64,000 nt of DNA, from the UHGV virus genome UHGV-0209617. The stretch is one strand, 5' to 3'. Position 1 is the first letter of the stretch. The number at the start of each line of letters is the position of its first letter. Shown here in pieces: positions 4,755 to 29,209 of this stretch. The notes below the pieces were generated by a model. That model ran no database searches. It saw only the letters and a list, made by a program, of their open reading frames with translations, and was not told the origin of the DNA. Source of the stretch: a virus. The position numbers were made by a program, and so were the translations under genes.

Positions 4755-6365
4755 ATGGATGAGAAGAATTTTATCAGATATGGGGAGAAAGCTATAGAAT
4801 ACCTACATATGGGAGATGAACAAGGTTTTTTTGAGGCCTTGGGGGTTATTAAACATGTTGGAAATAAAGACTACGCTAATATGCTAACATCACTCTATTT
4901 TTATAAGAAAAAGCAGTTTAGAAAATGTATGGACTGTTTAGAAAAAATAGCAGAATGCAAAAACGATAATTTGAAGGAGATGTTAACGGTATGGTATTGG
5001 GATTTTAAAATATGTTGTTTGGCAGAGCAAAAAAAGTTTTCTGAAATATCGAGTATTTTTTGTGAAGATAAAGGACTGTTTAGCGAAGATGATGAGATCA
5101 TAATGCAATATTCAAGCTACGTATATGCTAGATATCTTGCAATAAAAAGTGGATTTCAAAAAGATAAAAACACTGTATATTATCCTGGAATTTTGGGTAA
5201 GAATGTTATTCGTACAGAAGATCAGTTTATGTCTGTTATTTACAGAGAATTAGGTCGAGATTTACTAGATATACATTTAAATTATCATGCTCTTTTACAA
5301 TTGAAGAAGGCAAATGTTGAAAAGAACATTTGTAGGGAAATGAAGGAAAAATTGTTAGTCAAGGTACAATATATCTGTGATTTAGGTGACCAGAAATATT
5401 ATGCATTAACACCGCAAGTTGTTAAATACATGGAGTATATTACAAATATCATTACCAATGAAAAAAATTTAAATGAGGATAAACTTAATGATTTGATTAT
5501 TTCTTTATTTTCAGACGAAATTTTAATCCAAGATATAGACAATTGGTTATTTATGGTTGATTTATTTTCTGTAACGGCAGATAATGAAAAATTTATTAAT
5601 TTCTTTAGATGTTATGATCAATTTATACTTAAATGTCTAAGTAGAGATAATGAGATCGTAGCAAAAAAATTAATATGGATGTGTAATGACGAGAGATTTT
5701 CCTCATTAAAATATGAACATACAACCTTTAAAGATTATTGGGAACATAAGATTGAGCTGTATATGCCTGGGTTTATTGCAAATAGTAGAGTTTATTCATG
5801 TGATAAATATATTCTTGATAATTTATCAGAAAAGAGTAAATGGGCATATGAAGCAGCAATATGGCAGTATGAAAATGTTATGGAATATGGCAGTGAATAT
5901 ATGGATGCTGGTTTGTTGAGTCTAGCGTTTATGAGAGTGCTAGAAACAGAATTGAATGCTAGAGTAATAGCGCCTTTATCAAAAGCTATAAGTGAAGATA
6001 CAAAGGGAAAAGCTTTACTAGACAAATTATTAGTTGGGGCTAATAGTTACCATTATAAGTTTTTGAAAAAAACGAATAAGGGAGCTACATTAGGTCAAAT
6101 CGGGCATTTTCTTGAGGGAATTCGGAAAAAAAGTATCGCAGAATATTCCTGTTTTTATAATATTTTATGTAATAGCTTATTGAGTATTTCTGGAAAAGAG
6201 GCCATAGATGCAGGGATATTCGAAGAAATGACTAGCCAAAAACTAATTGATAAGTATAGAAATCCACCTGCACATTCTAAATATCTTCAAAAGTCAGAAG
6301 CAGTAAAGGGAAAACTATTTGTAGAAGATAGTTTGAGAAAACTATTTACATATATTAACCGATAA
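4755..6365 (+). CDS. Hypothetical protein, 536 aa, unknown function, no signal peptide
   Basis: Long uninterrupted AT-rich ORF beginning where the paralog pseudogene homology stops; no P-loop, nuclease or other recognisable motif. Confidence 0.65.
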   Translation: MDEKNFIRYGEKAIEYLHMGDEQGFFEALGVIKHVGNKDYANMLTSLYFYKKKQFRKCMDCLEKIAECKNDNLKEMLTVWYWDFKICCLAEQKKFSEISSIFCEDKGLFSEDDEIIMQYSSYVYARYLAIKSGFQKDKNTVYYPGILGKNVIRTEDQFMSVIYRELGRDLLDIHLNYHALLQLKKANVEKNICREMKEKLLVKVQYICDLGDQKYYALTPQVVKYMEYITNIITNEKNLNEDKLNDLIISLFSDEILIQDIDNWLFMVDLFSVTADNEKFINFFRCYDQFILKCLSRDNEIVAKKLIWMCNDERFSSLKYEHTTFKDYWEHKIELYMPGFIANSRVYSCDKYILDNLSEKSKWAYEAAIWQYENVMEYGSEYMDAGLLSLAFMRVLETELNARVIAPLSKAISEDTKGKALLDKLLVGANSYHYKFLKKTNKGATLGQIGHFLEGIRKKSIAEYSCFYNILCNSLLSISGKEAIDAGIFEEMTSQKLIDKYRNPPAHSKYLQKSEAVKGKLFVEDSLRKLFTYINR

Positions 6366-6519
6366 TGTATTTTTGTTATTCATATCAAAAATAAGAAAAC
6401 ATAGATAATATTTACAGAATATATAGTTTATTAAATGAACTATATAATACGACGCAATTAAAATATGTACTGGGTTGATTAACAATTTTATTTCAAAGTG
6501 ATGATAGGAGTGTTTAAAG

Positions 6520-7197
6520 TTGAGGAGAATATTTTCATATTTTTTAGCATTAATAATCATGTTATCGGCTACCACAGGAATGGCTGCTGATGACAGATGG
6601 GTATGTATAGAAGATGATGGTATAGGTCAATTCTATTTAGATTCCAAGACAACGTCATATGATTCAGCAGCAAATACAGTAAAGTTCTGGGTTAAATACG
6701 AAGAGAATTCCAAAATCGTAAATATGGATTACTATTTGGTGGATATCAGTAACACAAAATATGGTATTATGCGTTCAGCATTTTATCAAAATAAAACATA
6801 TCCGGAGATAAAGAATTATGAAAATGTGGTACCGCAAAATCCGATTTGGCCAGATGATATTATAGAGAAGGCAGCTAACATGGTATGTGATAATAACAAC
6901 GCTAAGCATATGTATCCTAGTGGTGTCGACAGGTGGCATTGGCTGTATTCCACTGAGCAGTGCACATACAATTATGCTCCTGGTATGGTAGTTGTAGATA
7001 AAGAAAAACGCACAGTGACAGTGTGGACGCAATCTGTATACCCGGAGCATGGAATTGGTGGTGTAACACGGTGGGTATGTTATTTTAATGAAAATATGGT
7101 GGAGCACACTAATAGCAGAGGTGTATATAAGCAGTATGTCTTGCCAGATACATTAGAGGAAGCTGTCTGGGAAAAAGCTGAGCCATATATGAAGTAA
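6520..7197 (+). CDS. Secreted hypothetical protein (TTG start, signal peptide)
   Basis: TTG preceded by AGGAG at 9-nt spacing; N-terminus RRIFSYFLALIIMLSATTGMAADD is signal-peptide-like. Confidence 0.55.
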   Translation: MRRIFSYFLALIIMLSATTGMAADDRWVCIEDDGIGQFYLDSKTTSYDSAANTVKFWVKYEENSKIVNMDYYLVDISNTKYGIMRSAFYQNKTYPEIKNYENVVPQNPIWPDDIIEKAANMVCDNNNAKHMYPSGVDRWHWLYSTEQCTYNYAPGMVVVDKEKRTVTVWTQSVYPEHGIGGVTRWVCYFNENMVEHTNSRGVYKQYVLPDTLEEAVWEKAEPYMK

Positions 7198-7392
7198 ATT
7201 ATTTATTTCATATATGGCCTATAGGTTAGAATTAAGGTCTAACTTTTTGAGGTTGGTACAACATAGGGGGAAATCTTTGCTGTCTTATTTTTTGTGCATG
7301 AAATTAGGAATTTATGTGGAATACTATAAAATATGTCAATAGATACATCAGTAAATAAGACTAAGGTTATAAGTATGGGAGGGGACCATAAT

Positions 7393-15353: not shown

Positions 15354-17024
15354 ATGGAGTGCATTGAAAGAATATTTTACAGAAAGATTAATCCTTCTGA
15401 TTTCAAAAAGTTGTATGATATTGACAAACCAGAAGGTGGCGGTGGTCAGACATACTTGGAAGCCGCTGGTATTTCAAATGAAAAAATCGTTGATTTCCTT
15501 TCCTATGCGGAGGTTACAAACAGTCCTTTGCCAGATGAAACAAGGTCTGTTTATACATTCAATGCCTATGTTTTGGGCGATTCAAAGGGTAAATGTTCGT
15601 TTGTAGAATTTGCACCTCGCAAAGGAAGAAATAACTATCGTATAAGCCGTCAGAACATGAAATATAAACATCCGGCATGGAGTTTGGATAATGGATTTCC
15701 CGAACCATCAAAAGGTGATGATGGCGAATACACATCTGCAGGCGATTTTGTGGGAATCATTGATAATCTTGTTATTCTTATCATAAGAACTACAAATCGG
15801 CGTTATTATGCAGGTTTTGTAAATATAGCGACAATGCCAGAGAACTGGCCACACAATATTGGCTTAGAGGGCATTTTTAGTGGTGAACGCAGAGATGTAC
15901 TAAAAATGGATGCGTATAAACTACAGTTTGTTAATGATGCCTGTAATCCATTCGGTGATTATGTCCCAACAATCGAAGAATGTAATCGAGCGACTACTGG
16001 TTGCAATGTGCTTTTGTACGGAGTTCCCGGAGCAGGAAAGAGTTGGACAATTGAACACGAATATTGTGCCGATGAAGGGTGTATGGAGCGATTGGTTTTC
16101 CATCCGGATTATATGTATTCGGATTTCGTTGGACAAATTTTGCCTGTAGTAAGGGACGATGACAAGGTTCGTTATGAGTTTACGCCGGGTCCGTTTACCA
16201 AATTATTAAAAAAAGCATATTGGAATACAGAACAGTCTTTTTACCTTATAATAGAAGAAATAAATCGTGGTAATGCACCAGCGATATTCGGTGAAATATT
16301 TCAGCTTTTGGATAGAAAAGATGAAGACGAAATAGATGAAAATAGGGAGATTCTCTACAAAAAAGGCACAAGTGAGTATGGAATAACAAATGCCAATATT
16401 GCACGAATCGTTTATGGCGATGAAAACCATAAGGTTCGAATTCCTGCAAATATGTCTATTTTGGGTACAATGAATACTTCTGACCAAAATGTTTTTACAT
16501 TAGACACAGCATTTCAGAGAAGATGGATTATGAGAATGATTCCGAATTCATTTGATAACCATAAGTTCGCAGACAAGAAGATTTTGGATACTGATATTTC
16601 CTGGAGACAGTTCTGTGAAGCAATTAATGAGGAAATTTTGCGTAGAAACAACATCACATCTTCTGAGGATAAGCGACTTGGGGCATATTTTATCTCGGCT
16701 TCGGATTTGGAGATGAAACCAATCACAGACGGGATGAGCGAAAAAGAAAAAATCCAAGTGGAGCATAGCAACAGCAGATTTGCAGAAAAAGTATTGAAAT
16801 ATTTATGGGATGATGCTTTCAAATTTTCCCATCAAGATACATTTAACACAAGACAGTTTGGTAGTCTTGAAAAAGTTATCGAAGGCTTTATGAATCCTGC
16901 CAAGCCTAAAAATGAGCGTTTTCGTGTATTCAATGAGAACCTTCGTAAAATGATTTTGGATGGAGTAACAGCAGAATCAAACGAGGTTTCTGATGATGAC
17001 AGCGAAGGCTCACAGGAATCTTAA
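15354..17024 (+). CDS. McrB-like AAA+ GTPase restriction subunit with an N-terminal domain of about 200 aa that I cannot assign
   Basis: LLYGVPGAGKSW (Walker A), LIIEEINRGNAPAIFGEIFQLLDR (McrB-type IDEINRAN-like motif), ILGTMNTSDQN (NTxD-type motif). Confidence 0.85.
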   Translation: MECIERIFYRKINPSDFKKLYDIDKPEGGGGQTYLEAAGISNEKIVDFLSYAEVTNSPLPDETRSVYTFNAYVLGDSKGKCSFVEFAPRKGRNNYRISRQNMKYKHPAWSLDNGFPEPSKGDDGEYTSAGDFVGIIDNLVILIIRTTNRRYYAGFVNIATMPENWPHNIGLEGIFSGERRDVLKMDAYKLQFVNDACNPFGDYVPTIEECNRATTGCNVLLYGVPGAGKSWTIEHEYCADEGCMERLVFHPDYMYSDFVGQILPVVRDDDKVRYEFTPGPFTKLLKKAYWNTEQSFYLIIEEINRGNAPAIFGEIFQLLDRKDEDEIDENREILYKKGTSEYGITNANIARIVYGDENHKVRIPANMSILGTMNTSDQNVFTLDTAFQRRWIMRMIPNSFDNHKFADKKILDTDISWRQFCEAINEEILRRNNITSSEDKRLGAYFISASDLEMKPITDGMSEKEKIQVEHSNSRFAEKVLKYLWDDAFKFSHQDTFNTRQFGSLEKVIEGFMNPAKPKNERFRVFNENLRKMILDGVTAESNEVSDDDSEGSQES

Positions 17025-18321: not shown

Positions 18322-18362
18322 AAAATCCGCAAGCAGTGATTATGCTGTTTGCGGATTTTTTA
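18321..18362. terminator. Bidirectional rho-independent terminator between the R-M operon and the convergent CGNR gene
   Basis: A-run, ATCCGCAAGCAG / CTGTTTGCGGAT stem, then TTTTTT. Confidence 0.65.
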
Positions 18363-19544
18363 TTTGCCCTTTTGAACTTTGATGCGATGGGAACGTTGAT
18401 TATTTGCGTTTCTACAGTTACTGCAACAATATTTATTTCTACTATTGGATGTCTTTACTAAGAAATATTTATGGCAAGAAGGATTGGCACACTTTCTATA
18501 TATTTCAGATCCGGGTTTCATGTAGAAAATAGAAAAATATAATGCAGAAAGCAATGATGGTGCCTTCCACGACGGTTCCAGTGAATTGGGACTGTAGAAA
18601 GGTTTTATACTTCTGGTATTATGATTTATTTCCCCACTTAAAACGAGTCGTGCGATAAGAGTAGCAGCCTCTTTTAATGGACTGTTAAATTTGCTGAAAT
18701 CTGGACTACTATAGTATTCAATGCCGCCCTCGAAAGTTACAGCTTTTATTACACCAACAGAATGCATATAGTGAAACAGGAATTCAACCATTAGTCGGAG
18801 CTTCTTGGATTGAATATTGTTATTCTTGTAAGCAATAGTAACCTGGCGATACAGCGTATCATTAATTCCAGGATAATCGTATGTAAATGTTTCTCCGTTT
18901 GAAATATCATCATATTCATCAGCATTTAATTCATATGAAGGAGCATAAATCATGTCTTTTACGGTAATAGATTCTGTTTCAGAGGATTGCTGTAGTGAAT
19001 CGATAGAGGCTTGATTTCTGATGCTATCATGAAATGGATGCCGATAGGTTGAATAAGTAATTCGTGCAGTGCCATTAAGCGTAACTTGTGTCCCAAGAAG
19101 CAAATACAAAGTTAAATGTAGAATCTGTTCATAATCAAGTGATGGTTTTTCCACTGCGGCCATAAGGAGAACTGTAGCCTTTATTCGATTCAAGACTTCT
19201 ACAAGCGCTACTATATCAATTTCCGTTCCTTCGGGCGAAATAGGAAGTAGATAACCATGTTCCTCGAAAAAACCAAGGACCTTTTTTACATTGGTTGCCG
19301 GAAGCGATATCAGAGAACCGAGAACATTTTTATTTTGAAGTGAACCGTGTGGAGTCGTTAAACATAAACCTCGGCTTCCGCTAAAGGCATAATTTATAAT
19401 TTCATCATTCACGGGATAGACTGTTAATATTTTATGCGCCTGCCCGTCCGTCTTTAAGACTTCTTCTATTCTAAATGTACATTTTTTGCAACTCAAAGAA
19501 AAATAATCGTTGCTAAGATTGAAAAAATTGTCTAACTCAGTCAT
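18360..19544 (-). CDS. Protein with C-terminal CGNR-type zinc finger; N-terminal ~340 aa unassigned
   Basis: C-terminus CANPSCHKYFLVKTSNSRNKYCCSNCRNANNQRSHRIK fits the CGNR zinc-finger pattern (C-x2-C ... C-x2-C-R). Confidence 0.65.
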   Translation of the reverse strand: MTELDNFFNLSNDYFSLSCKKCTFRIEEVLKTDGQAHKILTVYPVNDEIINYAFSGSRGLCLTTPHGSLQNKNVLGSLISLPATNVKKVLGFFEEHGYLLPISPEGTEIDIVALVEVLNRIKATVLLMAAVEKPSLDYEQILHLTLYLLLGTQVTLNGTARITYSTYRHPFHDSIRNQASIDSLQQSSETESITVKDMIYAPSYELNADEYDDISNGETFTYDYPGINDTLYRQVTIAYKNNNIQSKKLRLMVEFLFHYMHSVGVIKAVTFEGGIEYYSSPDFSKFNSPLKEAATLIARLVLSGEINHNTRSIKPFYSPNSLEPSWKAPSLLSALYFSIFYMKPGSEIYRKCANPSCHKYFLVKTSNSRNKYCCSNCRNANNQRSHRIKVQKGK

Positions 19545-19978
19545 AAAAAACTACTCCATATTTCCTTGCCCCTCGTAGAAGGGTCTTTTTTTATGTCGAA
19601 AAGTAAGTGATTACATAAGTAATAATGTAATTATAACGCTTACTATTGCTTGTTTCAAGCTAGTATAGTAATGAAATACACAGAAAGTAAGTGATTATAT
19701 CAGAAATTTACTTACTATACTGAAATTCTTATACTTAAAGACAGTGAAGGACAACCAAACTTTATATACAGCGGAGGTGTTTTTCACATCCCTGTTTCAA
19801 TGTTCATCGCCTGATCAGCGATGCCCAGAGCGGAGAAACGGACACAAGTAAATATCAGTCAACCCACTGGGACGGTTGGCCAGCTAAGAAATGAGGATTT
19901 CATTCTTATGGCCAATTATTATGGGAAGTTCAGTGTGGGTCCTCATTTCGGTTTTCAGACCGAAGGAGGGTCTACACG

Positions 19979-20488
19979 ATGGACAAATTTGAAAATCTAC
20001 AGACAAGCAACGAGAAGCAGTATTACATTCCTTTGGAAGTAACCGCAGAAACTATCAGAGATTTTGGCATCAACCCTAAAGATGTGGTATGGACGAGAAT
20101 CGGGAACAAGCCTAAAAAGGTTGTTATGATTCCCGTAACCGAGGAGCAGTACAAAACATTTATGCGTCCTCTGTGGCGTGAGGACAAGCGTCAGCAAAGA
20201 CAGGAGCCGATGGCATCGCTGGATAAGATGTACGAAAAAACCGAGTACGAAGCGGCTGATACCGACTCTGACCTTGAAGCGAATATTATGAAGAAAATGC
20301 TGATTGATGAGCTTCACAAGGCACTGGATGAACTGGAAGAAATCGACCGCACCATTATGAAGATGTACAGCAATAACCATAGCGAAGCCGAAATCGGACA
20401 GACTATCGGTATGAGCCAGAAGGGTGTTAATAAACGTAAGCACAAGGTGCTGCTGAAACTTAACACCAGATTGAAAGACTTCAGATAA
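19979..20488 (+). CDS. Sigma-70 region-4-like HTH protein (putative phage transcription factor)
   Basis: C-terminal EIGQTIGMSQKGVNKRKHKVLLKL HTH; GAAGGAGGG SD. Confidence 0.65.
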   Translation: MDKFENLQTSNEKQYYIPLEVTAETIRDFGINPKDVVWTRIGNKPKKVVMIPVTEEQYKTFMRPLWREDKRQQRQEPMASLDKMYEKTEYEAADTDSDLEANIMKKMLIDELHKALDELEEIDRTIMKMYSNNHSEAEIGQTIGMSQKGVNKRKHKVLLKLNTRLKDFR

Positions 20489-20502
20489 GGGATAATACCC
20501 TG

Positions 20503-20541
20503 CCTGCTCTGCCACAGCATTATCCGGTGGAGCAGGTTTTT
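20503..20541 (+). terminator. Rho-independent terminator candidate
   Basis: CCTGCTC ... GAGCAGG stem then TTTTT, 15 nt after the stop. Confidence 0.5.
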
Positions 20542-20562
20542 ATATTGTTTTCAAAAAATAGT

Positions 20563-20629
20563 GGTTCTTAAAACAACCGTATATGTCCTTTCACTCTCAG
20601 AGGGGCAAACAAGGCACCTCGGAAAGGAC
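20563..20629 (+). promoter_or_regulatory. Conserved leader element copy 1 (GGTTCTTAAAAC ... GTCCTTTCACTCTCAGAGGGG ... GAAAGGAC)
   Basis: Same blocks recur at 25507-25571; TCCTTTC and GAAAGGA can pair as a stem. Confidence 0.45.
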
Positions 20630-20807
20630 GGTGTCAAACGATGACAACCAGATGTAGAACAGGCACGAGGGGCTGCGGCAGTCAGGAACTCGACCGAGAG
20701 TTATCTGATGCGCTTATCGCAATCAGTGTCGTGTCAAAAAGAATCGCTGACCGTATTACAGCAGTCAGCGGCAGAGAAAAAAAAGAATATGGAAGGAGGA
20801 AGCCTAA

Positions 20808-21170
20808 ATGGGAAAGATGAACGAGTTGTCTATGCTCACAGAGGAACTTCGCAAATGTGGTGAAACGCTTATCAGCATTTCAGAGGAATTGGCGGGTATG
20901 TTCAGCGGCTCTGCGGAAGAAAAGCAGCCTGTCAAAAAGAGTGCTGCTAAGAATAAAGCCGCCGAGGCGACGAAGCCAGAAGCGCCGAAGAAAAAGGCTC
21001 TCACGCTGGAAGATGTCCGTGCCGTGTGTGCAGACAAATCCCGCAGTGGTTTTACGGCAGAAGTCAAAGCAATCCTGAATAAGCACGGTGTGGAAAAGCT
21101 GTCGGAGGTTAATCCAGCAGAATATAAGGCACTGCTTGCTGAAGTGGAGGTGCTGGGAAATGCCGGATAA
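20808..21170 (+). CDS. Hypothetical phage protein (120 aa, lysine- and alanine-rich middle)
   Basis: ORF with GAAGGAGG SD. Confidence 0.55.
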   Translation: MGKMNELSMLTEELRKCGETLISISEELAGMFSGSAEEKQPVKKSAAKNKAAEATKPEAPKKKALTLEDVRAVCADKSRSGFTAEVKAILNKHGVEKLSEVNPAEYKALLAEVEVLGNAG

Positions 21171-22332
21171 ACAGAAGGTGAATTGCACCGCAGGTGCAAG
21201 AGAGGCTGGCCTGGGCCACGCAGTTTTATCAGCATCATCCAGTCACCGCTGGCTTGCCTGCCCTCCTTCGGCTTTGCTTTGTGCGAAAGTCGGAGATACC
21301 ATAAGCGAGTTTGCTATGCAGGGTACCGATGCCCACAGCCTTTGCGAACATAAGGTGAAAACAGCATTGGGGCAGCAGTCGAAAGACCCTACAGAGAATT
21401 TAACGTTCTTTGACGAGGAGATGGCAGACTGTTCCGATATGTATGCTCAGTATGTGATGGAGCAGCTTGGGGCGGCAAAGGAAAAGTGCAAAGACCCAAT
21501 CGTTCTGATTGAACAGCGTCTTGATTTTTCCAAGTGGGTACCGCAGGGGTTCGGCACCGGGGACTGTGTCATTGTAGCTGATGAAACGCTGACAATCATT
21601 GACATGAAATACGGAGTCGGGATTCTTGTTTACGCAGAGAAAAATCCGCAAATGATGTGTTACGCATTGGGAGCTTTGGCGCTGTTTGATGGGATTTACG
21701 ATATAACACAGGTATCAATGACAATCTTCCAGCCGCGAAGAGACAATGTCAGCACATACACCATTTCTAAAGTAGAACTTCTGAAATGGGCGGATGAGGT
21801 GCTTGCTCCGACCGCACAGCTTGCAGCCAAGGGAGAAGGAGAATACAAGGCCGGAGACCACTGCCAGTTCTGCAAGGTCAAAGCCAAGTGTCGCAAAAGA
21901 GCCGAATACAACCTGGAACTTGCCCGTTATGATTTTGAAATGCCTTCCACCCTTGAAGACGATGAGATTGAGGCCATTTTAGAAAAAGCAGACGCGCTGG
22001 TATCCTGGGCGGGCGATGTCAAGGAATATGCATTGCAGCAGGCAGTCAGCGGCAAGCAGTGGAAAGACTGGAAGATTGTCGAAGGACGCTCCAACAGGAA
22101 GTATGTAAATGAAACAGCCGTGGCAGATACGGTCAAGGATGCAGGTTATGACCCGTTTGAACATAAGGTTCTGGGGATTACCGCAATGACCAAACTACTC
22201 GGCAAGGCAAAATTTGAAGAATTGCTCTCCGGGTTTATTGAAAAAACACAGGGCAAGCCAACATTGGTACCTATGTCGGACAAACGTCCGGCAATGAATA
22301 CAGCAGCTAACGATTTTAAGGAGGACAACTAA
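21160..22332 (+). CDS. DUF2800-type PD-(D/E)xK nuclease (Cas4/RecB-like, with Cys cluster)
   Basis: SASSSHRWLACP N-terminal motif, IIDMKYG, C-terminal CQFCKVKAKC cysteine cluster. Confidence 0.75.
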   Translation: MPDKQKVNCTAGAREAGLGHAVLSASSSHRWLACPPSALLCAKVGDTISEFAMQGTDAHSLCEHKVKTALGQQSKDPTENLTFFDEEMADCSDMYAQYVMEQLGAAKEKCKDPIVLIEQRLDFSKWVPQGFGTGDCVIVADETLTIIDMKYGVGILVYAEKNPQMMCYALGALALFDGIYDITQVSMTIFQPRRDNVSTYTISKVELLKWADEVLAPTAQLAAKGEGEYKAGDHCQFCKVKAKCRKRAEYNLELARYDFEMPSTLEDDEIEAILEKADALVSWAGDVKEYALQQAVSGKQWKDWKIVEGRSNRKYVNETAVADTVKDAGYDPFEHKVLGITAMTKLLGKAKFEELLSGFIEKTQGKPTLVPMSDKRPAMNTAANDFKEDN

Positions 22333-22333
22333 T

Positions 22334-22900
22334 ATGTCAAAGAATTACACAAATCCTACCAAGGTAATCACAGGAGTCAATACTCGTTGGTCTTACGCAA
22401 ATGTGTGGGATCCGAAATCCATCAACGGCGGTGCACCGAAGTACAGCGTGAGCCTTATCATTCCGAAGTCTGATACCGCAACGGTAAACAAGATAAAGGC
22501 AGCTATCCAGTCTGCTTATGAAGAGGGCGAATCCAAGCTGAAGGGCAATGGCAAGAGTGTACCTGCTCTTTCCATTATTAAGACCCCTCTTCGTGATGGT
22601 GATTTGGAGCGTCCGGATGATGTAGCGTATGCAGGCTGTTACTTCGTCAATGCCAACTCTGCAACTGCTCCCGGTATTGTTGACGCAGAACGTCAGCCGA
22701 TTCTTGACCGCAGTGAGGTATACAGCGGTGTGTATGGCCGTGCATCCATCAACTTCTATGCCTTCAATTCCAATGGGAATAAGGGTATCGCCTGCGGTCT
22801 TAATAACCTGCAGAAGATCCGTGATGGTGAGCCTCTTGGTGGAAAGAGCCGTGCCGAGGACGATTTTGCTACCGATGCAGATGAAGATTTTCTCGCATAA
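22334..22900 (+). CDS. DUF2815-type phage protein (SSB-like, usually partnered with DUF2800 and DNA polymerase)
   Basis: Size, position and sequence character fit my recollection of this family; AAGGAGGA SD. Confidence 0.6.
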   Translation: MSKNYTNPTKVITGVNTRWSYANVWDPKSINGGAPKYSVSLIIPKSDTATVNKIKAAIQSAYEEGESKLKGNGKSVPALSIIKTPLRDGDLERPDDVAYAGCYFVNANSATAPGIVDAERQPILDRSEVYSGVYGRASINFYAFNSNGNKGIACGLNNLQKIRDGEPLGGKSRAEDDFATDADEDFLA

Positions 22901-23127
22901 GGAGGACGGCTTATTATGACAACCATTCAGAGTATGATGCTGTGTGTTTCGGTGCCGTGATGGGAACTTTCATTGCAGATGTGGGGTTTCTCATCAAGTG
23001 TGTCATTGACAAGCACAAGGAGAAAAAGAGTAAGAAAAAAGAAGAGTCTGCTGATAAGGCAGAGTAAATGACAGCGGGCGGCGTAGGTGTATTCTTCGCC
23101 GCCTTGCTTATATGAAGGAGTGACAAT

Positions 23128-25119
23128 ATGGGAAAAATACAAACATTGTCCTTGGACTTGGAGACTTATTCTGATGTGGATTTGCAGAAGTGCGGGGTCT
23201 ATAAATATGCCCAGTCTCCTAATTTTGAAATTCTGCTATTTGGTGTATCCGTAAATGGCGGTGCGGTTGTGGTCTATGACCTGGCACAGGGCGATACCGT
23301 GCCGATTGAAATTATCAAAGCACTGACCGATGAAACCGTAACCAAATGGGCATATAATGCGGCTTTCGAGAGAATCTGTTTGTCAGTGTGGCTGCAGAGA
23401 AACTACCCGGAATATTTTTGCAGTTACAGCATCAATGAGGATACTGTCGGGGATTATCTGGATCCTTCTGCCTGGAAATGCTCCATGATATGGGCGGCAT
23501 ACATGGGACTGCCGTTATCCCTTGCGGGAGCCGGCACGGTGTTGGGATTGGAGGAACAGAAACTCAAGGAGGGCAAAGACCTTATAAGGTATTTCTGTGT
23601 TCCCTGCAAGCCGACCAAAGTGAACGGCGGCAGGACACGCAATCTGCCGGAGCATGATATGGAGAAATGGAATACCTTCGTTTTATATAACAAGCGAGAT
23701 GTGGAAGTGGAGACGTCCATACAGGACAAACTAAAAAAATTCCCTGTGCCGGATTTTGTGTGGGATGAGTACCACCTCGACCAGGAAATCAACGACCGTG
23801 GGATTGCTCTTGATATGGCGGTAGTGGAGAATGCCATTGCTTTTGATGCAAAATCCAAGGCGGAACTGGCAGAGAAAATGCAGGAACTGACTGACCTTGA
23901 TAACCCAAACTCCGTGGTACAGATGAAGCAGTGGCTATTGGATAACGGTTTGGAGATGGACAGCCTTGGAAAAAAGAAAGTAGCACAGGCGATAAAAACT
24001 GCTCCGAAGGAACTGGCGGAGGTTCTGCAGCTGCGACAACAATTATCCAAGTCCTCCGTAAAAAAGTATCAGGCAATGCAGAATGCTGTCTGTGAGGATG
24101 GCAGAGCCAGAGGGATGTTTCAGTTTTACGGGGCAAACAGAAGCGGCAGATGGGCAGGCAGAATGATACAGCTGCAAAATCTGCCTCAGAACCATATGCC
24201 GGATTTGGAACAGGCACGAGGACTGGTGAAGTCTGGTAATTACGCAGCGATGGAACTCTTATATGATGATATCCCCGATACTCTATCGCAGCTTATCCGC
24301 ACTGCCTTTGTGCCGAGACCGGGTATGAAATTTGTCGTGGCGGACTTCTCGGCAATTGAAGCAAGGGTGCTGTCGCATCTTGCAAAAGAAAACTGGCGAA
24401 CAGAAGTCTTTGCAAATAACAGGGATATTTATTGTGCATCGGCATCAGCCATGTTCGGTGTTCCTGTGGAAAAACATGGTGTCAACGGAAACCTCCGTCA
24501 AAAGGGCAAAATTGCTGAATTGGCTCTGGGCTACGGCGGTTCAGTCGGTGCTTTGAAAGCAATGGGTGCCATTGATATGGGACTTTCCGAAGAGGAATTA
24601 CAGCCACTGGTGGATTCTTGGAGAGCCGCCAACCCTAACATTGTGAAGTTCTGGTGGGAGGTTGACCGATGTGTCAAGGAAACTGTGAAAAAGAGAGTGC
24701 CGACCGAAACGCATGGCATCCGTTTTATCTATCAGAGCGGGATGCTTTTTATCAAGCTCCCTTCCGGCAGACAGCTTTCCTATGTGAAGCCTCGCATGGG
24801 AGAAAACCGTTTTGGCGGTGAGTCCGTAACCTATGAAGGTGTCGGAGGTACAAAGAAATGGGAACGCATCGAAAGTTATGGTCCAAAGTTTGTGGAAAAT
24901 ATCGTGCAGGCAATCAGCAGGGACATTTTGGCGCATTCCATGAGAACCTTGTCGCACTGCTTTATCTGCGGTCATGTGCATGATGAATTGATTATTGAGT
25001 GTAGTATGGGAGTTTCCCTTGATGCCGTGTGTGAACAGATGGGCAGGACTCCGGCCTGGATACCGGGTCTGCTTCTCCGTGCAGATGGGTACGAATGCAG
25101 CTTCTATAAAAAAGATTAA
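23128..25119 (+). CDS. Family A DNA polymerase (phage type, with 3'-5' exonuclease domain)
   Basis: LSLDLETYS (exo I), DFSAIEARV (motif A), RQKGKIAELALGYGG (motif B), VHDELIIE (motif C). Confidence 0.9.
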   Translation: MGKIQTLSLDLETYSDVDLQKCGVYKYAQSPNFEILLFGVSVNGGAVVVYDLAQGDTVPIEIIKALTDETVTKWAYNAAFERICLSVWLQRNYPEYFCSYSINEDTVGDYLDPSAWKCSMIWAAYMGLPLSLAGAGTVLGLEEQKLKEGKDLIRYFCVPCKPTKVNGGRTRNLPEHDMEKWNTFVLYNKRDVEVETSIQDKLKKFPVPDFVWDEYHLDQEINDRGIALDMAVVENAIAFDAKSKAELAEKMQELTDLDNPNSVVQMKQWLLDNGLEMDSLGKKKVAQAIKTAPKELAEVLQLRQQLSKSSVKKYQAMQNAVCEDGRARGMFQFYGANRSGRWAGRMIQLQNLPQNHMPDLEQARGLVKSGNYAAMELLYDDIPDTLSQLIRTAFVPRPGMKFVVADFSAIEARVLSHLAKENWRTEVFANNRDIYCASASAMFGVPVEKHGVNGNLRQKGKIAELALGYGGSVGALKAMGAIDMGLSEEELQPLVDSWRAANPNIVKFWWEVDRCVKETVKKRVPTETHGIRFIYQSGMLFIKLPSGRQLSYVKPRMGENRFGGESVTYEGVGGTKKWERIESYGPKFVENIVQAISRDILAHSMRTLSHCFICGHVHDELIIECSMGVSLDAVCEQMGRTPAWIPGLLLRADGYECSFYKKD

Positions 25120-25131
25120 AGCATAAAAAAT

Positions 25132-25157
25132 GGAGAGACGAAATAAATCGTCTCTCC
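25132..25157. terminator. Perfect 9-bp hairpin GGAGAGACG-AAATAAAT-CGTCTCTCC with an A-run on its 5' side
   Basis: Read directly; no T-run on the plus strand, so it is oriented to stop leftward transcription or to act as a structured site. Confidence 0.4.
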
Positions 25158-25506
25158 TGAAAGTCCAATCGGTTTGAGCATCTGTGAGAGGCTTGATTGG
25201 TTCTGTCAAATCCCAAAATGCAAGGAGAGCCGGATTTCTCTGACTCTCTCAAGTATGTATCCTTGAATACATACCCCAATTAGTGTCCATATTATACAGC
25301 TTCCGTTCGAAATATGCAAGACCTAAATGAAATTTTTCAAGGCAGACATTCGTGCTGATAAATCCGGATGAATGACGATTGCTGCTACTGCGGGATTGAC
25401 GGATATTTTATAGTCATCTGTGATTTTCTCAAATTCTCGAATGAAGGCCTTTATTTCGGTTTTGGCATATGTAGCAATTTTAAGAGCAAAAAAAGATTAA
25501 AAATAC

Positions 25507-25571
25507 GGTTCTTAAAACGCAGGGTTTTGTCCTTTCACTATCAGAGGGCAAGACCCTACTTTTATGAAAGG
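25507..25571 (+). promoter_or_regulatory. Conserved leader element copy 2; 3' arm overlaps the SD of the Rha gene
   Basis: GGTTCTTAAAAC ... GTCCTTTCACTATCAGAGGG ... GAAAGG; CCTTTCA can pair with TGAAAGG, which includes the SD. Confidence 0.45.
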
Positions 25572-25581
25572 CGGTATTTTT

Positions 25582-26247
25582 ATGAAAGAATTGATACCCA
25601 AAGACGAATACGGCATCTTTGCCGATGCACATGACACCGCAAGAGTAGACAGCTTGTTTGTAGCGGAGTTTTTTGAGAAGAACCATAAAGAGGTGCTGCG
25701 AGATATCCGCAAAATCACTGACCCCACATCCGGGTTAAGTGAAGAATTCCGACAGCGCAATTTTGCGCCGTCCTCATACACCAACAACCAGAATAAAAAG
25801 CAGCCGTGCTACTGCATGACTCGTGATGGATTCACAATGTTGGCAATGGGATATACCGGGCAAAAGGCAATGAAGTTCAAAGAACTGTACATTCACAGAT
25901 TTAATGAGATGGATGCTTTTATTAAGAACCTGGTATCTGCAAGACAGGAGTTTCCTCTTCTGACTGAAAATATCAAACTGCTCCATGACAAGCCGAAGCC
26001 TTACCACTTCAGCAATGAGTGCGATATGTTAAACCGCATCGTGCTTGGTATGACGGCAAAGCAGTTCAGACTTGCCAATAACATCGAAAAAGGCAAAAGT
26101 ATCAGACCGTATCTGACCAAAGAACAAATTGAGATGCTGGAAATCCTGCAGAAAGTTGATGTGGGTCTGCTCGTAGCATTCCCTGCTTACGAAGACAGAA
26201 AACGCCATCTTGAATGGTACAAAACCAAATTAGAGGAGGACAAATAA
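25582..26247 (+). CDS. Rha family phage regulatory protein
   Basis: DTARVDSLFVAEFFEKNHKEVLRDIRKI matches the Rha N-terminal domain. Confidence 0.8.
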   Translation: MKELIPKDEYGIFADAHDTARVDSLFVAEFFEKNHKEVLRDIRKITDPTSGLSEEFRQRNFAPSSYTNNQNKKQPCYCMTRDGFTMLAMGYTGQKAMKFKELYIHRFNEMDAFIKNLVSARQEFPLLTENIKLLHDKPKPYHFSNECDMLNRIVLGMTAKQFRLANNIEKGKSIRPYLTKEQIEMLEILQKVDVGLLVAFPAYEDRKRHLEWYKTKLEEDK

Positions 26248-26249
26248 AG

Positions 26250-26474
26250 ATGTTTTATGTGAAAGAACAGCTGAATGATGCGATGGAGGTTTCCATTGAA
26301 ATTAACGATGAGAATGTATTCTGCCGCTGCCCGTCCTGCGGGTCTGAGGTACAGGTTGACCTGGCAAAGGTATTTTCCGATGGTGACGGTGATCTGTTTG
26401 GCACATCGGTACTTTGCGACAGCTGCAGCAGAAAAATGATGGGAGGAAAGCCTTGTGGGAGTGAACAGGTATAA
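26250..26474 (+). CDS. Small zinc-ribbon protein
   Basis: CRCPSCG...CDSC four-cysteine ribbon; GAGGAGGA SD. Confidence 0.55.
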   Translation: MFYVKEQLNDAMEVSIEINDENVFCRCPSCGSEVQVDLAKVFSDGDGDLFGTSVLCDSCSRKMMGGKPCGSEQV

Positions 26475-26886
26475 CAGCGAGGGTTATCCTGCTCCGACCA
26501 CCTATGTGGCACTCACTTCCATCGAAAAAGAAACGAAAGCGGCAAGAGCGTACAGACCGATTGTGTATGTATGCTCTCCGTTTTCCGGAGATATTGCCGG
26601 GAACATTGCAAATGCACGAAAGTACAGTCGATTTGCTGTAGAGCAGGGGTATATCCCCATTGCTCCGCATTTGCTGTTTCCGCAGTTTCTTAATGATAAC
26701 GATTTAAGGTCACGTGAGCTGGGGCTTCATTTTGGAAATGTGCTGATGAGCCATTGCAGCGAGGTTTGGGTGTTCGGAGAAATTGTATCAGCCGGAATGG
26801 ATGCTGAAATCAGGAGAGCCAAAAGAAAAAATTACAGGCTGCGCTACTTTGGCAGTGATTTGAAGGAGGTTACAGAAAATGCGTGA
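26455..26886 (+). CDS. DUF4406-like (nucleoside 2-deoxyribosyltransferase-like) phage protein, GTG start
   Basis: RPIVYVCSPFSGD...GYIPIAPHLLF...CSEVWVFGE pattern; family name recalled with moderate certainty. Confidence 0.5.
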   Translation: MGVNRYNSEGYPAPTTYVALTSIEKETKAARAYRPIVYVCSPFSGDIAGNIANARKYSRFAVEQGYIPIAPHLLFPQFLNDNDLRSRELGLHFGNVLMSHCSEVWVFGEIVSAGMDAEIRRAKRKNYRLRYFGSDLKEVTENA

Positions 26887-29209
26887 TTTGAGTATTGCCT
26901 ATGGGAACGGCAGGACGGCAAAATTCTGGTCGAATAAAACGATTCGATTTGATGAATTATGTGACCGCCTGCGCAGTCCTATTTATACTTCGGAAACGGC
27001 AGAGGAATATCCGAAACTGCCCAAAGGTCAGCGTGATGATATCAAGGACAAAGGCGGATTTGTTGCCGGACATTTGCGTGATAACCGCAGACAGGCAAAT
27101 AAAGTGGTGTGCCGTTCTATGTTGGTGTATGACCTTGACAGCATCGAAGCAGAGTTTTTGAAGGACATCGGCAGCAAAATTTCCAACAAGGGATGCTATT
27201 ACACTACCCACAGCCATACCCCGGAGCATCCGAGGGCGAGAATGATTATTCCGGTCAGCCGTGATATGTCTCCGGATGAGTTCAATGCGGCTGCAAGATA
27301 TTATGCCCAAGATAACGGCTTTATCAGTATGCTTGATCCGTGTTCGTTTTCTCCACATCAGCTGATGTATTGGCCGACCTGTTCGTCCAATGGAGAATAC
27401 CTCTTTGACACAATAGACGGTGGCTGGCTTGACCCAGATACGATTTTTGCGAAGCATCCTAATTGGAGAGATTGTTCGCTGCTTCCTACCACACCGAAGG
27501 AGAGTAAGGCATCCGACCATAATGTAAAACAGCAGAAAGACCCGCTTGAAAAAGAGGGGGTGGTCGGTCTGTTCAACCGTGTTTATTTCCCTATCAGCAC
27601 GGCAATTGATGAGTTCCTTCAAGGTGTATATGAGCCGACCGCAGATACCTCCGGCAGATATGATTTTATCCCCGGCGAGGGTTCTGCGGGTGTTGTAATT
27701 TATGATGATAAATTCTCCTACAGCCACCATGCAACTGACCCTGCAGGCGGTAAACTGTGCAATGCCTTTGACCTTGTCCGCCTTCATAAATTCAGTGAGG
27801 ACGATGAGAAAAAATCCTATAAGCAGATGTGCGAGTTTGCCATGACCCTTGATAAAGTCAAACTGCAGGATCTTGAGGAAAAGAAACAAAGGGCAGCAGA
27901 TGATTTTTCGGAGAATGCCAACTGGCAGACCAAACTTCGCTATATGCCAAGAAGCAAGTGCCTGGAAAACAGCGTGTGGAATCTGATGCTGATATTAAAC
28001 AATGACCCGGATTTTGCAAATATTGCCTTCAATGAACTGGTAGGCAGAGTGCAGATTACGGGTGCCATTCCGTGGACAAGACCCAGTGACAATAAGTTCT
28101 GGAGGGATGCGGATACAGCACAGCTGAAGGCACTCATTGACATTCGTTATGAAACTTTCTCAAGCAGAAACCATGATGTGGCTTTTACTAAGGTGGTTGA
28201 GGACAGACATTTCAATCCCCTTCGTGATTGGCTTGACGCATTGCCAGAATGGGATGGTGTGGTAAGGCTTGAAAATCTGTATATCGATTTTCTTGGTGCG
28301 AATAACACGGTATATGTTAAGGCTGCGACCAGAAAATCCTTTGTGGCGGCTGTAGCGAGAATTTACGAGCCGGGTACAAAGTTTGATTCGGTTGTTGTAT
28401 TGGTGGGTCCGCAGGGCTGTGGTAAGTCTACGATTTTTGCAAGGATGGGAAATGAGTATTATTCCGACAGCTTGAATCTGACGGATATGAAGGACAAGAG
28501 CGGTGCGGAGAAACTGCAGGGATACTGGATTTTGGAACTAGGCGAACTGGCAGGACTCAAAAAAGCGGATGTTGAGGTAGTGAAAGCCTTTGTCAGCCGT
28601 ACCGATGATATTTACCGCCCTTCCTATGGTAGAACGATTGAAAGCCACCCAAGGCAGTGCATTATTGTGGGGACAACAAACTCGGAGTCCGGCTTTCTGC
28701 GTGATATTACGGGAAACCGCAGATTCTGGCCTATTAAGGTCACAGGTGTCAGCAAAAGAAAATCATGGGATATGACTGATGAAGAAGTCCTGCAAATGTG
28801 GGCGGAGGCAAAGTACCTGTATGGGCAGGGCGAGCCTTTGTATCTGAATTCGCAGGAAAGCAGTGAAGCATTGAGCGAACAGATTGATGCAATGGAAAGC
28901 GATGAGCGCCAGGGCATAGTCGAGGAGTACTTAAATACACTTCTGCCGGATAACTGGAACAGCATGGATCTGTATGAGAGAAGGAATTTTCTGACAGACA
29001 GCGCTTCGGCAAAGGGTACGGTACAAAGAAAGACCGTAAGCAATGCGGAAATATGGAGCGAGTGTTTTTGCAGAAACTTGTCCGACCTCAAGCCCTCTGA
29101 CTCCTATGCGATAGCTGCCCTTATGACCAAAGTGGACGGTTGGCAGAGAACCGACAAAATCAGAAAGCTTGCCATCTATGGAAGGCAGAGGATTTACGAG
29201 AGGTTGTGA
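26879..29209 (+). CDS. VirE-family (virulence-associated protein E) phage primase/helicase-like P-loop NTPase
   Basis: VLVGPQGCGKST Walker A; 776 aa; position in the replication module. Confidence 0.8.
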   Translation: MRDLSIAYGNGRTAKFWSNKTIRFDELCDRLRSPIYTSETAEEYPKLPKGQRDDIKDKGGFVAGHLRDNRRQANKVVCRSMLVYDLDSIEAEFLKDIGSKISNKGCYYTTHSHTPEHPRARMIIPVSRDMSPDEFNAAARYYAQDNGFISMLDPCSFSPHQLMYWPTCSSNGEYLFDTIDGGWLDPDTIFAKHPNWRDCSLLPTTPKESKASDHNVKQQKDPLEKEGVVGLFNRVYFPISTAIDEFLQGVYEPTADTSGRYDFIPGEGSAGVVIYDDKFSYSHHATDPAGGKLCNAFDLVRLHKFSEDDEKKSYKQMCEFAMTLDKVKLQDLEEKKQRAADDFSENANWQTKLRYMPRSKCLENSVWNLMLILNNDPDFANIAFNELVGRVQITGAIPWTRPSDNKFWRDADTAQLKALIDIRYETFSSRNHDVAFTKVVEDRHFNPLRDWLDALPEWDGVVRLENLYIDFLGANNTVYVKAATRKSFVAAVARIYEPGTKFDSVVVLVGPQGCGKSTIFARMGNEYYSDSLNLTDMKDKSGAEKLQGYWILELGELAGLKKADVEVVKAFVSRTDDIYRPSYGRTIESHPRQCIIVGTTNSESGFLRDITGNRRFWPIKVTGVSKRKSWDMTDEEVLQMWAEAKYLYGQGEPLYLNSQESSEALSEQIDAMESDERQGIVEEYLNTLLPDNWNSMDLYERRNFLTDSASAKGTVQRKTVSNAEIWSECFCRNLSDLKPSDSYAIAALMTKVDGWQRTDKIRKLAIYGRQRIYERL

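Follow-up and report, generated by a model that had tools for sequence, protein, structure and literature searches.

Two tiny ORFs upstream of a phage DNA polymerase gene read as the halves of one conserved small gene followed by a hairpin

What, if anything, is encoded in the short gap that separates two replication genes of a phage? In the 64-kb window, i.e. the whole stretch of DNA analysed here, this question is raised by the interval between the gene of a ssDNA-binding protein, which is a marker gene of Ca. Heliusvirales (PMC9226167, PMC11283538), and that of a family A DNA polymerase (Table 1). The first gene matches Pfam PF10991 (E = 3e-78) and PHROG phrog_112 (E = 5e-71) and its product has an acidic C-terminus (...ATDADEDFLA); the second matches PF00476 on identical contigs and its product is named 'DNA polymerase I' in NCBI nr (DAM45459.1). 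A sequence-only reading had described the gap as containing two tiny coupled ORFs and a GC hairpin, which could correspond to a small membrane peptide or to a leader region regulating polymerase expression. The elements that it listed, namely the two ORFs, the GGAGGA Shine-Dalgarno (SD) motif (22901-22906), the one-base overlap, the 35 codons of the second ORF and the GGCGGCG/CGCCGCC hairpin, are all present in the sequence and located in the gap, with coordinates that are one base lower than implied and a gap length of 227 nt instead of 228.

Table 1. Features in and around the gap between the ssDNA-binding protein gene and the polymerase gene (positions in the window).
Feature	Position	Strand	Remarks and basis
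DUF2815 / Enc34-type (Gp2.5-like) ssDNA-binding protein gene	22334..22900	+	TAA stop 22898-22900
Small-gene SD, AGGAGGA	22900..22906	+	9 nt before ATG; overlaps/abuts the ssDNA-binding gene TAA; read from sequence
Small-gene 5' fragment (putative), 14-codon ORF MTTIQSMMLCVSVP	22916..22960	+	stop TGA 22958-22960; ORF listing, alignment A1 with nine relatives
4-nt deletion site (TTCC or each relative's equivalent missing)	22941..22942	+	alignment to relatives
Small-gene 3' fragment (putative), 35-codon ORF MGTFIADVGFLIKCVIDKHKEKKSKKKEESADKAE	22960..23067	+	ATG 22960-22962, stop 23065-23067; tblastn and alignment to intact relatives
GC-rich RNA stem-loop (predicted)	23076..23104	+	folding; covariation in relatives
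Hairpin 3' tail TGCTTATAT, degenerate U-tract	23105..23113	+	TTTTT here in other clades
Polymerase SD, GAAGGAG	23114..23120	+	read from sequence; kept in alignment A1
Family A DNA polymerase gene, 663 aa	23128..25119	+	ATG at 23128; phrog_17, E = 8e-141

Comparison with relatives indicates that the two ORFs are most likely the halves of one conserved gene of ca. 51 codons that was split by a 4-base deletion. In tblastn searches, the 41-aa and 14-aa peptides of the window both matched one and the same ORF in relatives, with 80-86% identity over the 3' 41 aa; this longer peptide corresponds to the frame of the 35-codon ORF, which is open from a GTG at 22942 and then spans 41 codons. In alignment A1, the window reads GCT----GTGTGT when compared to nine relatives that each possess a single ORF of 49-53 codons. 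The extra 4 nt were present in all nine of these aligned relatives and in 30 of 30 pattern matches collected from IMG/VR, GTDB genomes and metagenomes, in which the 26-nt intact version occurs within an uninterrupted ORF of 50-52 codons. Across the relatives examined for the fused ORF (10 IMG/VR loci, 30 pattern hits and 78 protein clusters), a single ORF of 47-53 codons starting with MTTIQSMMLSVCFGAVMGTLIANVGFLIKCAIDKHKEKKRKK was found in every one outside the near-clonal lineage of the window (at least 99.95% identity), to which the two-ORF pair is confined. The reading frame is thus conserved in homologous phages as one fused frame and not as a two-ORF arrangement, and the coupled pair described earlier is an artefact of a lineage-specific deletion.

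The effect of this deletion can be followed codon by codon. The first ORF comprises nine native codons (MTTIQSMML), five out-of-frame codons (CVSVP) and a TGA; the loss of 4 nt past this ninth native codon puts the following codons out of frame, so that ribosomes starting from the conserved SD, whose region TAAGGAGG is kept in most relatives of this type (hereafter type A), stop after 14 codons. The ATG at 22960 uses the A of the upstream TGA, and this TGATG overlap results from an in-frame GTG-ATG (Val16-Met17) of the intact gene being read out of frame. The 35-codon ORF represents codons 17-51 of the ancestral protein, which correspond to the second half of a hydrophobic helix and to a Lys-rich tail. 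Taken together, the two ORFs of the window display the full-length type-A pattern (MTT.QSMML.VCFGAV.G..I......I..A...HKEKKRK...; alignments A1 and A2) as well as type-A synteny, with a location between the DUF2815 ssDNA-binding and family A polymerase genes and an SD at the upstream stop. They also align over the full length of hypothetical proteins of ca. 50 aa from Ca. Heliusvirales phages and prophages (P0004; Agathobaculum sp. RWV98_06990; Hespellia MAG PHN80_10000), with which the window shares the flanking genes, the SD overlapping the ssDNA-binding stop and the downstream hairpin, but its own copy carries the deletion and cannot make the full-length protein. The ORF being interrupted, the window copy is therefore a disrupted copy and not an intact member of type A. 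Overall, we consider it very likely that the gap consists of one disrupted small gene and one conserved RNA hairpin.

The fused ORF evolves as a coding sequence under purifying selection. Its pN/pS is 0.21 in the ORF frame, whereas values of 1.1-2.4 were obtained for four of the remaining five frames: 1.3 and 2.4 for the two alternative sense frames and, among the others, 1.08 for the antisense frame that is free of stops. Since these ORFs were retrieved with a conserved motif, the ratio was also computed once the motif codons were removed and amounts to 0.22. Variable columns at codon positions 1, 2 and 3 number 19, 13 and 35 of 38, respectively. Antisense ORFs of 70-71 aa span the gap (22914-23142) and are stop-free in many relatives; they were rejected as genes on the basis of the ratio given above for the open antisense frame.

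The intact type-A protein has a short N-terminus followed by ca. 22 hydrophobic residues and a tail rich in Lys, Arg and Glu, and it was modelled by AlphaFold2 as one helix covering residues 3-50 (mean pLDDT 80). The intact gene is thus predicted to encode a small single-pass membrane protein of 47-53 aa, which would insert N-out/C-in, the charged tail facing the cytoplasm, following the positive-inside rule. The small membrane peptide proposed earlier is supported for this ancestral protein, with its hydrophobic helix, basic or charged tail and coding evolution, and not for the two separate ORFs. A word-indexed search recovered 78 type-A protein clusters at 90% identity, and a profile search of 1.84 billion representatives recovered 117 clusters at 50% identity, nearly all of them being stand-alone, 31-92 aa long and aligned from residue 1. 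The intact protein matched no Pfam or PHROG model above threshold. Assignments to holin, lipoprotein or FAM176 families were discarded, for this protein and for other proteins encoded at the same location, as sub-threshold matches typical of any hydrophobic helix; in the case of holins (PF16082 Phage_holin_2_4; phrog_4237), the score was 17.2 bits for a cut-off of 30, the PHROG E-value was 0.14 and the gene lies in the replication module. The small protein would be an accessory component of the early/replication operon, dispensable for prophage maintenance.

The second element of the gap is the hairpin, in which GGCGGCG (23077-23083) pairs with CGCCGCC (23097-23103) and GGGCGGCG pairs with CGCCGCCT, next to an upper stem of 3 bp. 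At 23084 the window has a T where relatives have a G, which leaves T opposite T (23084/23096) unpaired inside the stem. The window hairpin exceeds what chance would give: it folds with -21.2 kcal/mol (z = -3.2; one of 200 shuffles folds as well), and the 64 kb contain no more than five perfect GC-rich stems of 7 bp or longer, of which it is one. In relatives, a hairpin precedes the polymerase start by 5-29 nt in the majority of 72 loci (median score 28.5 versus a background of 14), and the consensus stem of 11 bp shows compensatory double changes in 7 of its 11 pairs, with frequent G-U pairs. It occurs with or without the small ORF. The many G-U pairs would become A-C mismatches on the complementary strand, which makes the structure plus-strand-specific. 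An ORF of 15 codons that runs through the hairpin (MTAGGVGVFFAALLI, 23068-23115) was considered as a conserved extension of the polymerase and rejected, its frame containing a stop in some relatives; in some others this frame runs open into the polymerase, for which gene callers give 683 aa. Promoter-like sites were no more common than in shuffled sequences in a promoter scan, and a weak match (ATGACA-16-TATTCT) overlaps the hairpin.

Based on its sequence features, the hairpin looks like a terminator or an attenuator that has been conserved before the polymerase gene. It shares with Rho-independent terminators and attenuators found inside operons an 11-bp GC-rich stem, a short loop of 5 nt, a location just past a stop codon and strand specificity, and T-runs (TTTTT) follow the stem in many clades. 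It differs from them in the window and its clade, in which an uninterrupted U-tract was not found (UUGCUUAU being poor and interrupted), and the internal mismatch of the window stem is a further difference; a terminator scan did not flag the hairpin tail in the window or in the related locus L002. The hairpin may instead act in RNA stability or processing. In the plus-strand transcript it could serve as a leaky intrinsic terminator or as a 3'-end stabiliser, which would set the ssDNA-binding protein, needed in stoichiometric amounts, and the small protein above the catalytic polymerase. With the weak U-tract of its clade and the G-to-T change in its stem, the window hairpin would be weaker still.

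Whether the hairpin acts as RNA at all can be questioned, as it might be a DNA-level element, either a hotspot of recombination at the border of a small-gene cassette that can be exchanged or a signal for replication or priming. GC hairpins indeed lie on both sides of the small ORF in several clades (loci L019, L023, L027, L033, L038, L044, L047, L054, L070 and L071), non-homologous small ORFs occupy the same location, sometimes two in tandem, the GGYGGC core is kept across very divergent loci and the hairpin resides inside the replication module. Yet the frequent G-U pairs of the plus strand would be G-T mismatches in DNA, the T-rich tails follow the stem on the plus strand only in many clades, and terminators internal to operons typically stand where the hairpin does, immediately past a stop codon and ahead of an SD. 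We thus regard a DNA-level role as quite unlikely and retain the RNA hairpin.

The hairpin could also be part of a leader peptide or attenuator system in which translation of the mini-ORF would control hairpin formation and hence polymerase transcription or translation. The stem begins 8 nt after the TAA of the small ORF in the window and 1-12 nt after the stop in most relatives, as read by eye, so that a terminating ribosome would cover its 5' arm; moreover, it stands directly upstream of the polymerase SD. Opposed to this are the purifying selection on the peptide sequence itself and its membrane-protein architecture, and the strong SD that the polymerase gene has of its own. Furthermore, the gap is devoid of an ORF in 22 of the 79 related loci, 15 with a short gap and 7 with overlapping genes, and most of the 15 short-gap loci still have the pre-polymerase hairpin. 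The single-sequence fold shows no competing antiterminator helix with the 5' arm, and no Rfam family matches (E-value mode, positions 22000-24000, chance-level matches only, with E of at least 4). A leader regulating the polymerase, as put forward in the sequence-only reading, is thus very unlikely, and a disrupted protein-coding gene followed by a separate RNA element accounts better for these data.

In the window lineage, the split itself might be functional, either as a translationally coupled pair of peptides or through a programmed +1 ribosomal frameshift restoring the full-length protein. An overlap of stop and start such as TGATG is a classic signal of coupling, a weak GGTG occurs 6 nt upstream of the second ATG, and the 35-aa ORF has no further disruption and is predicted by gene callers, an identical product being already recorded as P0153. 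Many samples contain the split lineage, whose exact ssDNA-binding protein has index entries in 27 blocks of the collection. The frameshifted lineage being this widespread, the split form could keep some function via reinitiation at TGATG. The arrangement is however limited to near-clonal sequences; in no relative outside this clonal lineage are both ORFs and their overlap kept as separate genes, and all other relatives, including every divergent one, have the fused frame, so that the likeness to UGAUG-coupled gene pairs is a by-product of the frameshift, arising automatically from the in-frame GTG ATG. As to a programmed frameshift, the two-frame arrangement is absent from all divergent relatives and no recognised shift-prone site was found, the 14-codon ORF ending in CCG-TGA, unlike the CUU-UGA of prfB-type +1 sites. 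Finally, the 35-aa product has lost half of the hydrophobic helix: its maximum Kyte-Doolittle mean over 19 residues is 0.95 versus 1.93 for the intact protein, and its hydrophobic stretch appears too short for a full-length membrane helix. A 41-aa version initiated at the GTG would reach 1.8 but has no SD. A functional split is hence highly improbable. The window copy would rather be a null or strongly hypomorphic allele, with weak reinitiation at TGATG giving at most little of an N-terminally truncated peptide devoid of a full-length membrane helix.

The 4-nt deletion is a real inherited allele supported by several independent assemblies. An exact look-up of the ssDNA-binding protein retrieved six independently assembled ENA/Logan contigs, from different samples and projects, that carry the same deletion, are 99.95-100% identical to positions 18334-26900 of the window and have an identical gap sequence. 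That a sequencing or assembly error hides an intact gene is extremely unlikely. In favour of an error, the record behind the window was assembled from metagenomic data (NCBI nr lists its proteins as 'MAG TPA ... Caudoviricetes sp.'), only intact versions came up when three collections (IMG/VR, GTDB genomes and JGI/ENA metagenome contigs) were scanned for the deletion allele, and other frameshift variants occur sporadically in low-coverage assemblies. Against it, the exact deletion recurs in these six contigs and the missing TTCC lies outside any homopolymer or simple repeat.

Beyond type A, the location between the ssDNA-binding and polymerase genes appears as a slot for small proteins. Ca. 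Heliusvirales, an order of temperate phages from gut Firmicutes and streptococci, is very widespread. Among its 79 related loci, 53 have in this gap an ORF of 42-92 aa that combines a single hydrophobic helix with a tail of net positive charge; an ORF for a small membrane protein is likewise found there in all six annotated phages that were sampled, including ORF16 of Streptococcus phage phi-SsUD.1, and NatCom_9291 XTK82527.1 is a related occupant of the same slot. The occupants are probably fast-evolving. Those of type A and type C were aligned by hhalign with 85% probability (E = 6e-6, 40 columns), which is suggestive of homology, this score being possibly inflated by membrane-helix composition. 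The members of phrog_2442 (phi-SsUD.1 ORF16, Javan122_0043) occupy the same DUF2815/polymerase slot with a protein of 55 aa made of a helix and a charged tail, and are followed by a GC hairpin with a T-run, as type-A loci are by a hairpin. They have, however, no significant sequence similarity with the window type: the type-A query did not match phrog_2442, and only L027-type gut-phage proteins did (E = 1e-6).

Membrane proteins p16.7 and p1 of phi29 anchor and organise phage DNA replication at the membrane (PMC4974454). The slot proteins resemble them, by analogy only, as early-operon products that have a membrane helix at the N-terminus and whose genes lie among those for replication, and a membrane tether for the replisome is the most specific functional analogy available. 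With ca. 130 aa, p16.7 of phi29 comprises a coiled coil and a folded domain that binds DNA, and phi29 replication is protein-primed; the Heliusvirales proteins differ in having 42-92 aa and only a charged helical tail, no Pfam or PHROG match to a p16.7-like organiser was obtained and the single-helix relatives of ca. 51 aa have no room for a folded domain. Slot proteins could hold the phage replisome at the membrane or organise it there, for instance through a basic tail that binds DNA or the acidic ...DEDFLA tail of the ssDNA-binding protein, and the window lineage would then be a natural knock-out; this is a speculative idea that we judge rather unlikely.

These data indicate that the gap of the window should be annotated as one disrupted small gene and an RNA hairpin rather than as mini-genes or a leader peptide. 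The features described do exist but are of an ordinary kind, and the wider observation on the slot is modestly useful. It concerns a family of small membrane proteins that Pfam lacks and that PHROGs either lacks as well or lists under 'unknown function'; its place in the replication module is constant, in a phage order that ranks among the most prevalent in the human gut. The natural occurrence of a frameshifted and still widespread lineage provides a ready comparison for the role of the small protein in induction, replication and host fitness.

The gap of 227 nt between the ssDNA-binding gene and the polymerase gene consists of one ancestral small gene, frameshifted in the window, and one conserved, strand-specific stem-loop. 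The elements described in the sequence-only reading, two tiny coupled ORFs and a GC hairpin, are present with ORF coordinates one base lower than implied there. Though confirmed, the observation is unremarkable: what it describes is a conserved, uncharacterised gene for a putative small membrane protein, disrupted in this copy, with a conserved stem-loop of terminator-like form behind it.

Coordinates of features in and around the gap
Feature	Position	Strand	Detail
McrB-like gene	15354-17024		556-aa product
ssDNA-binding gene	22334-22900	+	stop TAA
GGAGGA	22901-22906	+	directly after the TAA
14-codon ORF	ATG 22916, stop TGA 22958-22960	+	MTTIQSMMLCVSVP; final A of TGA is base 1 of the next ATG (22960)
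35-codon ORF	ATG 22960-22962, stop 23065-23067	+	MGTFIADVGFLIKCVIDKHKEKKSKKKEESADKAE; frame open already from GTG 22942 (41 codons)
5-bp stem-loop	23047-23063		TCTGC-TGATAAG-GCAGA; terminator-like on minus strand (scan tool)
15-codon ORF	23068-23115		MTAGGVGVFFAALLI; crosses the hairpin in the polymerase frame
Stem-loop (hairpin)	23076-23104	+	GGGCGGCG.AGG / loop / TCT.CGCCGCCT
Tail 3' of stem-loop	before polymerase SD	+	TGCTTATAT
Polymerase SD	23114-23120	+	GAAGGAG
Polymerase start	23128	+	ATG
Polymerase-Rha gap	25120-25563		445 nt, no Abi_2 gene
Hairpin, then T-run	25132-25157	-	strong

The genes around the gap encode a DUF2800/PD-(D/E)XK exonuclease (PF10926, E = 1.5e-162), the DUF2815/Enc34-type ssDNA-binding protein (PF10991; phrog_112, 'Gp2.5-like'), a family A DNA polymerase (phrog_17), a Rha-like regulator (PF09669) and a VapE-like primase/helicase (PF05272). 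They form the Ca. Heliusvirales replication module, and DUF2800, DUF2815 and the polymerase are three of that order's nine marker genes (PMC9226167, PMC11283538). GenBank phages with the best matches are likewise assigned to Heliusvirales, and NCBI nr names for the window's own proteins read 'MAG TPA ... [Caudoviricetes sp.]'. NCBI nr lists the McrB-like protein under the name 'GTPase subunit of restriction endonuclease' (DAM45446.1, a record that assigns the gene to a phage MAG), which points to a defence-type gene just upstream of the module. In related prophages (L119, at 6339-7241, and L120-L126) a minus-strand gene for a 300-aa Abi_2 protein (PF07751, abortive infection) lies between the polymerase and Rha genes, an interval that looks like a second variable slot of the module, for accessory or defence genes.

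The hairpin before the polymerase gene has a folding energy of -21.2 kcal/mol in the window (z = -3.2; 1 of 200 shuffles as stable). Few others like it exist: the whole 64 kb contain just five perfect GC-rich stems of 7 bp or more, this one included. No Rfam family was found at the gap. In most loci a GC-rich hairpin is found 5-29 nt 5' of the polymerase start, whether preceded by a small ORF or by the ssDNA-binding gene itself, with a median score of 28.5 (24 for the window's own) versus 14 for random 75-nt windows of the same loci (95th percentile 21; 99th percentile 28). RNAalifold analysis of 22 diverse examples gave a consensus stem of 11 bp with compensatory double changes in seven pairs (e.g. 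C-G in 12 vs U-A in 9, A-U in 11 vs G-C in 7). G-U pairs are frequent in this stem, and the other strand would have A-C mismatches in their place, indicating that the structure is selected in the plus strand, most simply in the sense transcript. A T-run follows the stem in many clades, and the sequences of the streptococcal and Christensenellales hairpins look like canonical intrinsic terminators; the tail in the window's clade (TTGCTTAT) was not flagged by the terminator scan tool. Since G-U pairs and T-tails are strand-specific, a hairpin acting at the DNA level, as cassette boundary or priming signal, is unlikely.

In several clades the small ORF is also preceded by a hairpin, which separates it from the ssDNA-binding gene. 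At 23084 the window lineage carries T, against G in every one of the other 19 distinct sequences of the same hairpin type (GGCGGCGTAGG vs GGCGGCGGAGG), which costs the stem about 4 kcal/mol; this is a second lineage-specific change, at most 145 nt from the frameshift. L119-type contigs (L119 4157-4216) have GGA for the TGA at 23113-23115 of the window, and callers give a 683-aa polymerase. Extension of the polymerase through the hairpin was rejected because other relatives have TAA or TGA at that site, making the call a start-site annotation artefact and not a conserved extension. In some contigs (L088, L095, L097 and L098), what follows the small ORF and hairpin is a gene without a polymerase-like start, which begins ATGTCAGATGA... 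(MSDE...), so that the hairpin may mark a recombination boundary joining different downstream modules.

Occupancy of the slot between the two genes was tallied over the 79 loci containing both. In 53 of them the gap has one or more ORFs of 42-92 aa in which a hydrophobic stretch near the N-terminus is combined with a highly charged tail of net positive charge; another 15 have a 58-96-nt gap with no ORF, the two genes overlap in seven, and four have other gap content. The occupants fall into several sequence types. Two loci, L021 (gap 542 nt) and L043 (gap 510 nt), carry two different small single-helix membrane ORFs in tandem, showing that the slot can take more than one occupant and that at least two unrelated small-protein types exist. 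Profile-profile comparison of type A, that of the window, with another type, C, aligned 40 columns at 85% probability, which may reflect distant homology or just common composition. All six annotated phages opened (NatCom_9291, Oscillospiraceae phage NatCom_11393, a Christensenellales phage, and Streptococcus phages phi-SsUD.1 (ORF16), Javan122 and phi-SgaBSJ27_rum) have a 52-60-aa 'hypothetical protein' of this architecture in the slot, the streptococcal type belonging to phrog_2442 (listed 'function unknown').

Among 22 distinct DNA versions of the intact ORF, variable columns per codon position number 19, 13 and 35 of 38. The pN/pS ratio is 0.21 in the ORF frame (0.22 once the codons by which the ORFs had been fished are removed), 1.29 and 2.39 in the two other sense frames and 1.08 in the stop-free antisense frame; the other antisense frames are interrupted by stops in most sequences or in all. 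Given that the peptide is under purifying selection and that hairpins also exist without any ORF, a leader peptide or attenuator, in line with the suggested leader region for polymerase expression, is very unlikely.

In a word-indexed search, the family comprised 78 clusters at 90% identity, with lengths of 35-69 aa that fall outside 46-59 aa in just three; all names are of the 'hypothetical protein' sort. One of these proteins is encoded on the Agathobaculum sp. NTUH-O15-33 chromosome and one in a Hespellia MAG. A profile search of 1.84 billion representatives gave 117 clusters at 50% identity, nearly all being stand-alone proteins (31-92 aa) with alignments that begin at residue 1; apart from the window's lineage, truncated or frameshifted members of the family are few and sporadic. 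Pfam and PHROG gave no significant family match for the intact protein. AlphaFold2, run on the family alignment, predicts one continuous helix over residues 3-50 (mean pLDDT 80, best over the hydrophobic part). The Kyte-Doolittle 19-residue maximum is 1.93 for the intact protein vs 0.95 for the 35-aa product of the window; the 41-aa GTG-started version reaches 1.8, but has no SD. The proposed small membrane peptide probably holds for the intact gene of relatives, with its single helix and purifying selection, and the two coupled ORFs reduce to a single frameshifted gene. The 5-bp stem-loop within the closing codons (ESADKAE) of the small ORF is kept in nucleotide sequence even between clades differing elsewhere (TCTGCTGAYAAGGCAG); protein constraint, RNA structure or recent recombination could be the cause.

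The intact gene was found among 80 IMG/VR loci retrieved with the ssDNA-binding protein as query, in each of which the end of its gene and the polymerase start were located. Ten (L001, L002, L004, L005, L017, L025, L048, L051, L052 and L080) have the window-type gap sequence, each with a single ORF of 49-53 codons (e.g. MTTIQSMMLSVCFGAVMGTLIANVGFLIKCAIDKHKEKKRKKNEESADKAE). In the DNA alignment of the window with nine of them (GCT----GTGTGT), the window lacks four bases present in 9/9, between 22941 and 22942. Owing to this deletion, the 14-codon ORF corresponds to ancestral codons 1-9 plus five out-of-frame codons, the 35-codon ORF to ancestral codons 17-51, and the TGATG overlap is what an in-frame GTG ATG (Val16-Met17) becomes once the frame is shifted. 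A pattern search allowing 0-4 bases at the deletion site matched 8 sequences in IMG/VR, 3 in GTDB genomes and 19 in metagenome contigs, and all 30 carry the 4-nt version with an unbroken ORF of 50-52 codons and the same surroundings.

An exact-match look-up for the ssDNA-binding protein of the window retrieved contigs from different ENA and Logan samples. Six of them, compared with the window over 18334-26900, are 99.95-100% identical with an identical gap, deletion included; gene callers make no call within the gap on these contigs, and the exact 35-aa product is predicted in another protein record (P0153). The frameshift is real, and these data indicate one mutational event inherited by a near-clonal, fairly widespread prophage lineage, neither a read or assembly error nor a conserved gene arrangement. 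Relatives thus conserve the fused single ORF, the two-ORF arrangement being restricted to this lineage; with the trivial explanation of the overlap, this makes a functional two-peptide unit or programmed frameshift highly improbable. Sequencing error is hardly credible given six identical independent contigs. An almost identical setting of small ORF, hairpin and polymerase is seen in three records (L089, L090 and L091) whose labels are Megasphaera sueciensis (Negativicutes), Enterococcus sp. PF1-24 and a Hespellia MAG, the Enterococcus protein being identical to that of an IMG/VR contig; either the element passes between distantly related hosts, or contamination or misbinning affects some of these records.

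From its architecture, the intact product would be a single-pass membrane protein with a cytoplasmic charged tail (positive-inside rule), probably co-expressed with the ssDNA-binding protein from an early/replication operon. The window's allele is presumably null or strongly hypomorphic, and weak reinitiation at TGATG could give a truncated peptide lacking the full membrane helix. The hairpin may serve as a leaky terminator or 3'-end stabiliser, and would hold expression of the polymerase below that of the stoichiometric ssDNA-binding protein. As a best guess, the small protein is a membrane protein with an accessory role in the replication stage, and the prophage can be maintained without it; the most specific functional hypothesis for this putative membrane protein, by analogy with phi29 p16.7 and p1 (PMC4974454), is tethering of the replisome to the membrane. 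The added value is modest: a gut phage order of very high prevalence is recognised to have, within its replication module, a fixed slot for putative small membrane proteins, and the natural frameshift lineage is a resource for testing the role of the small protein.
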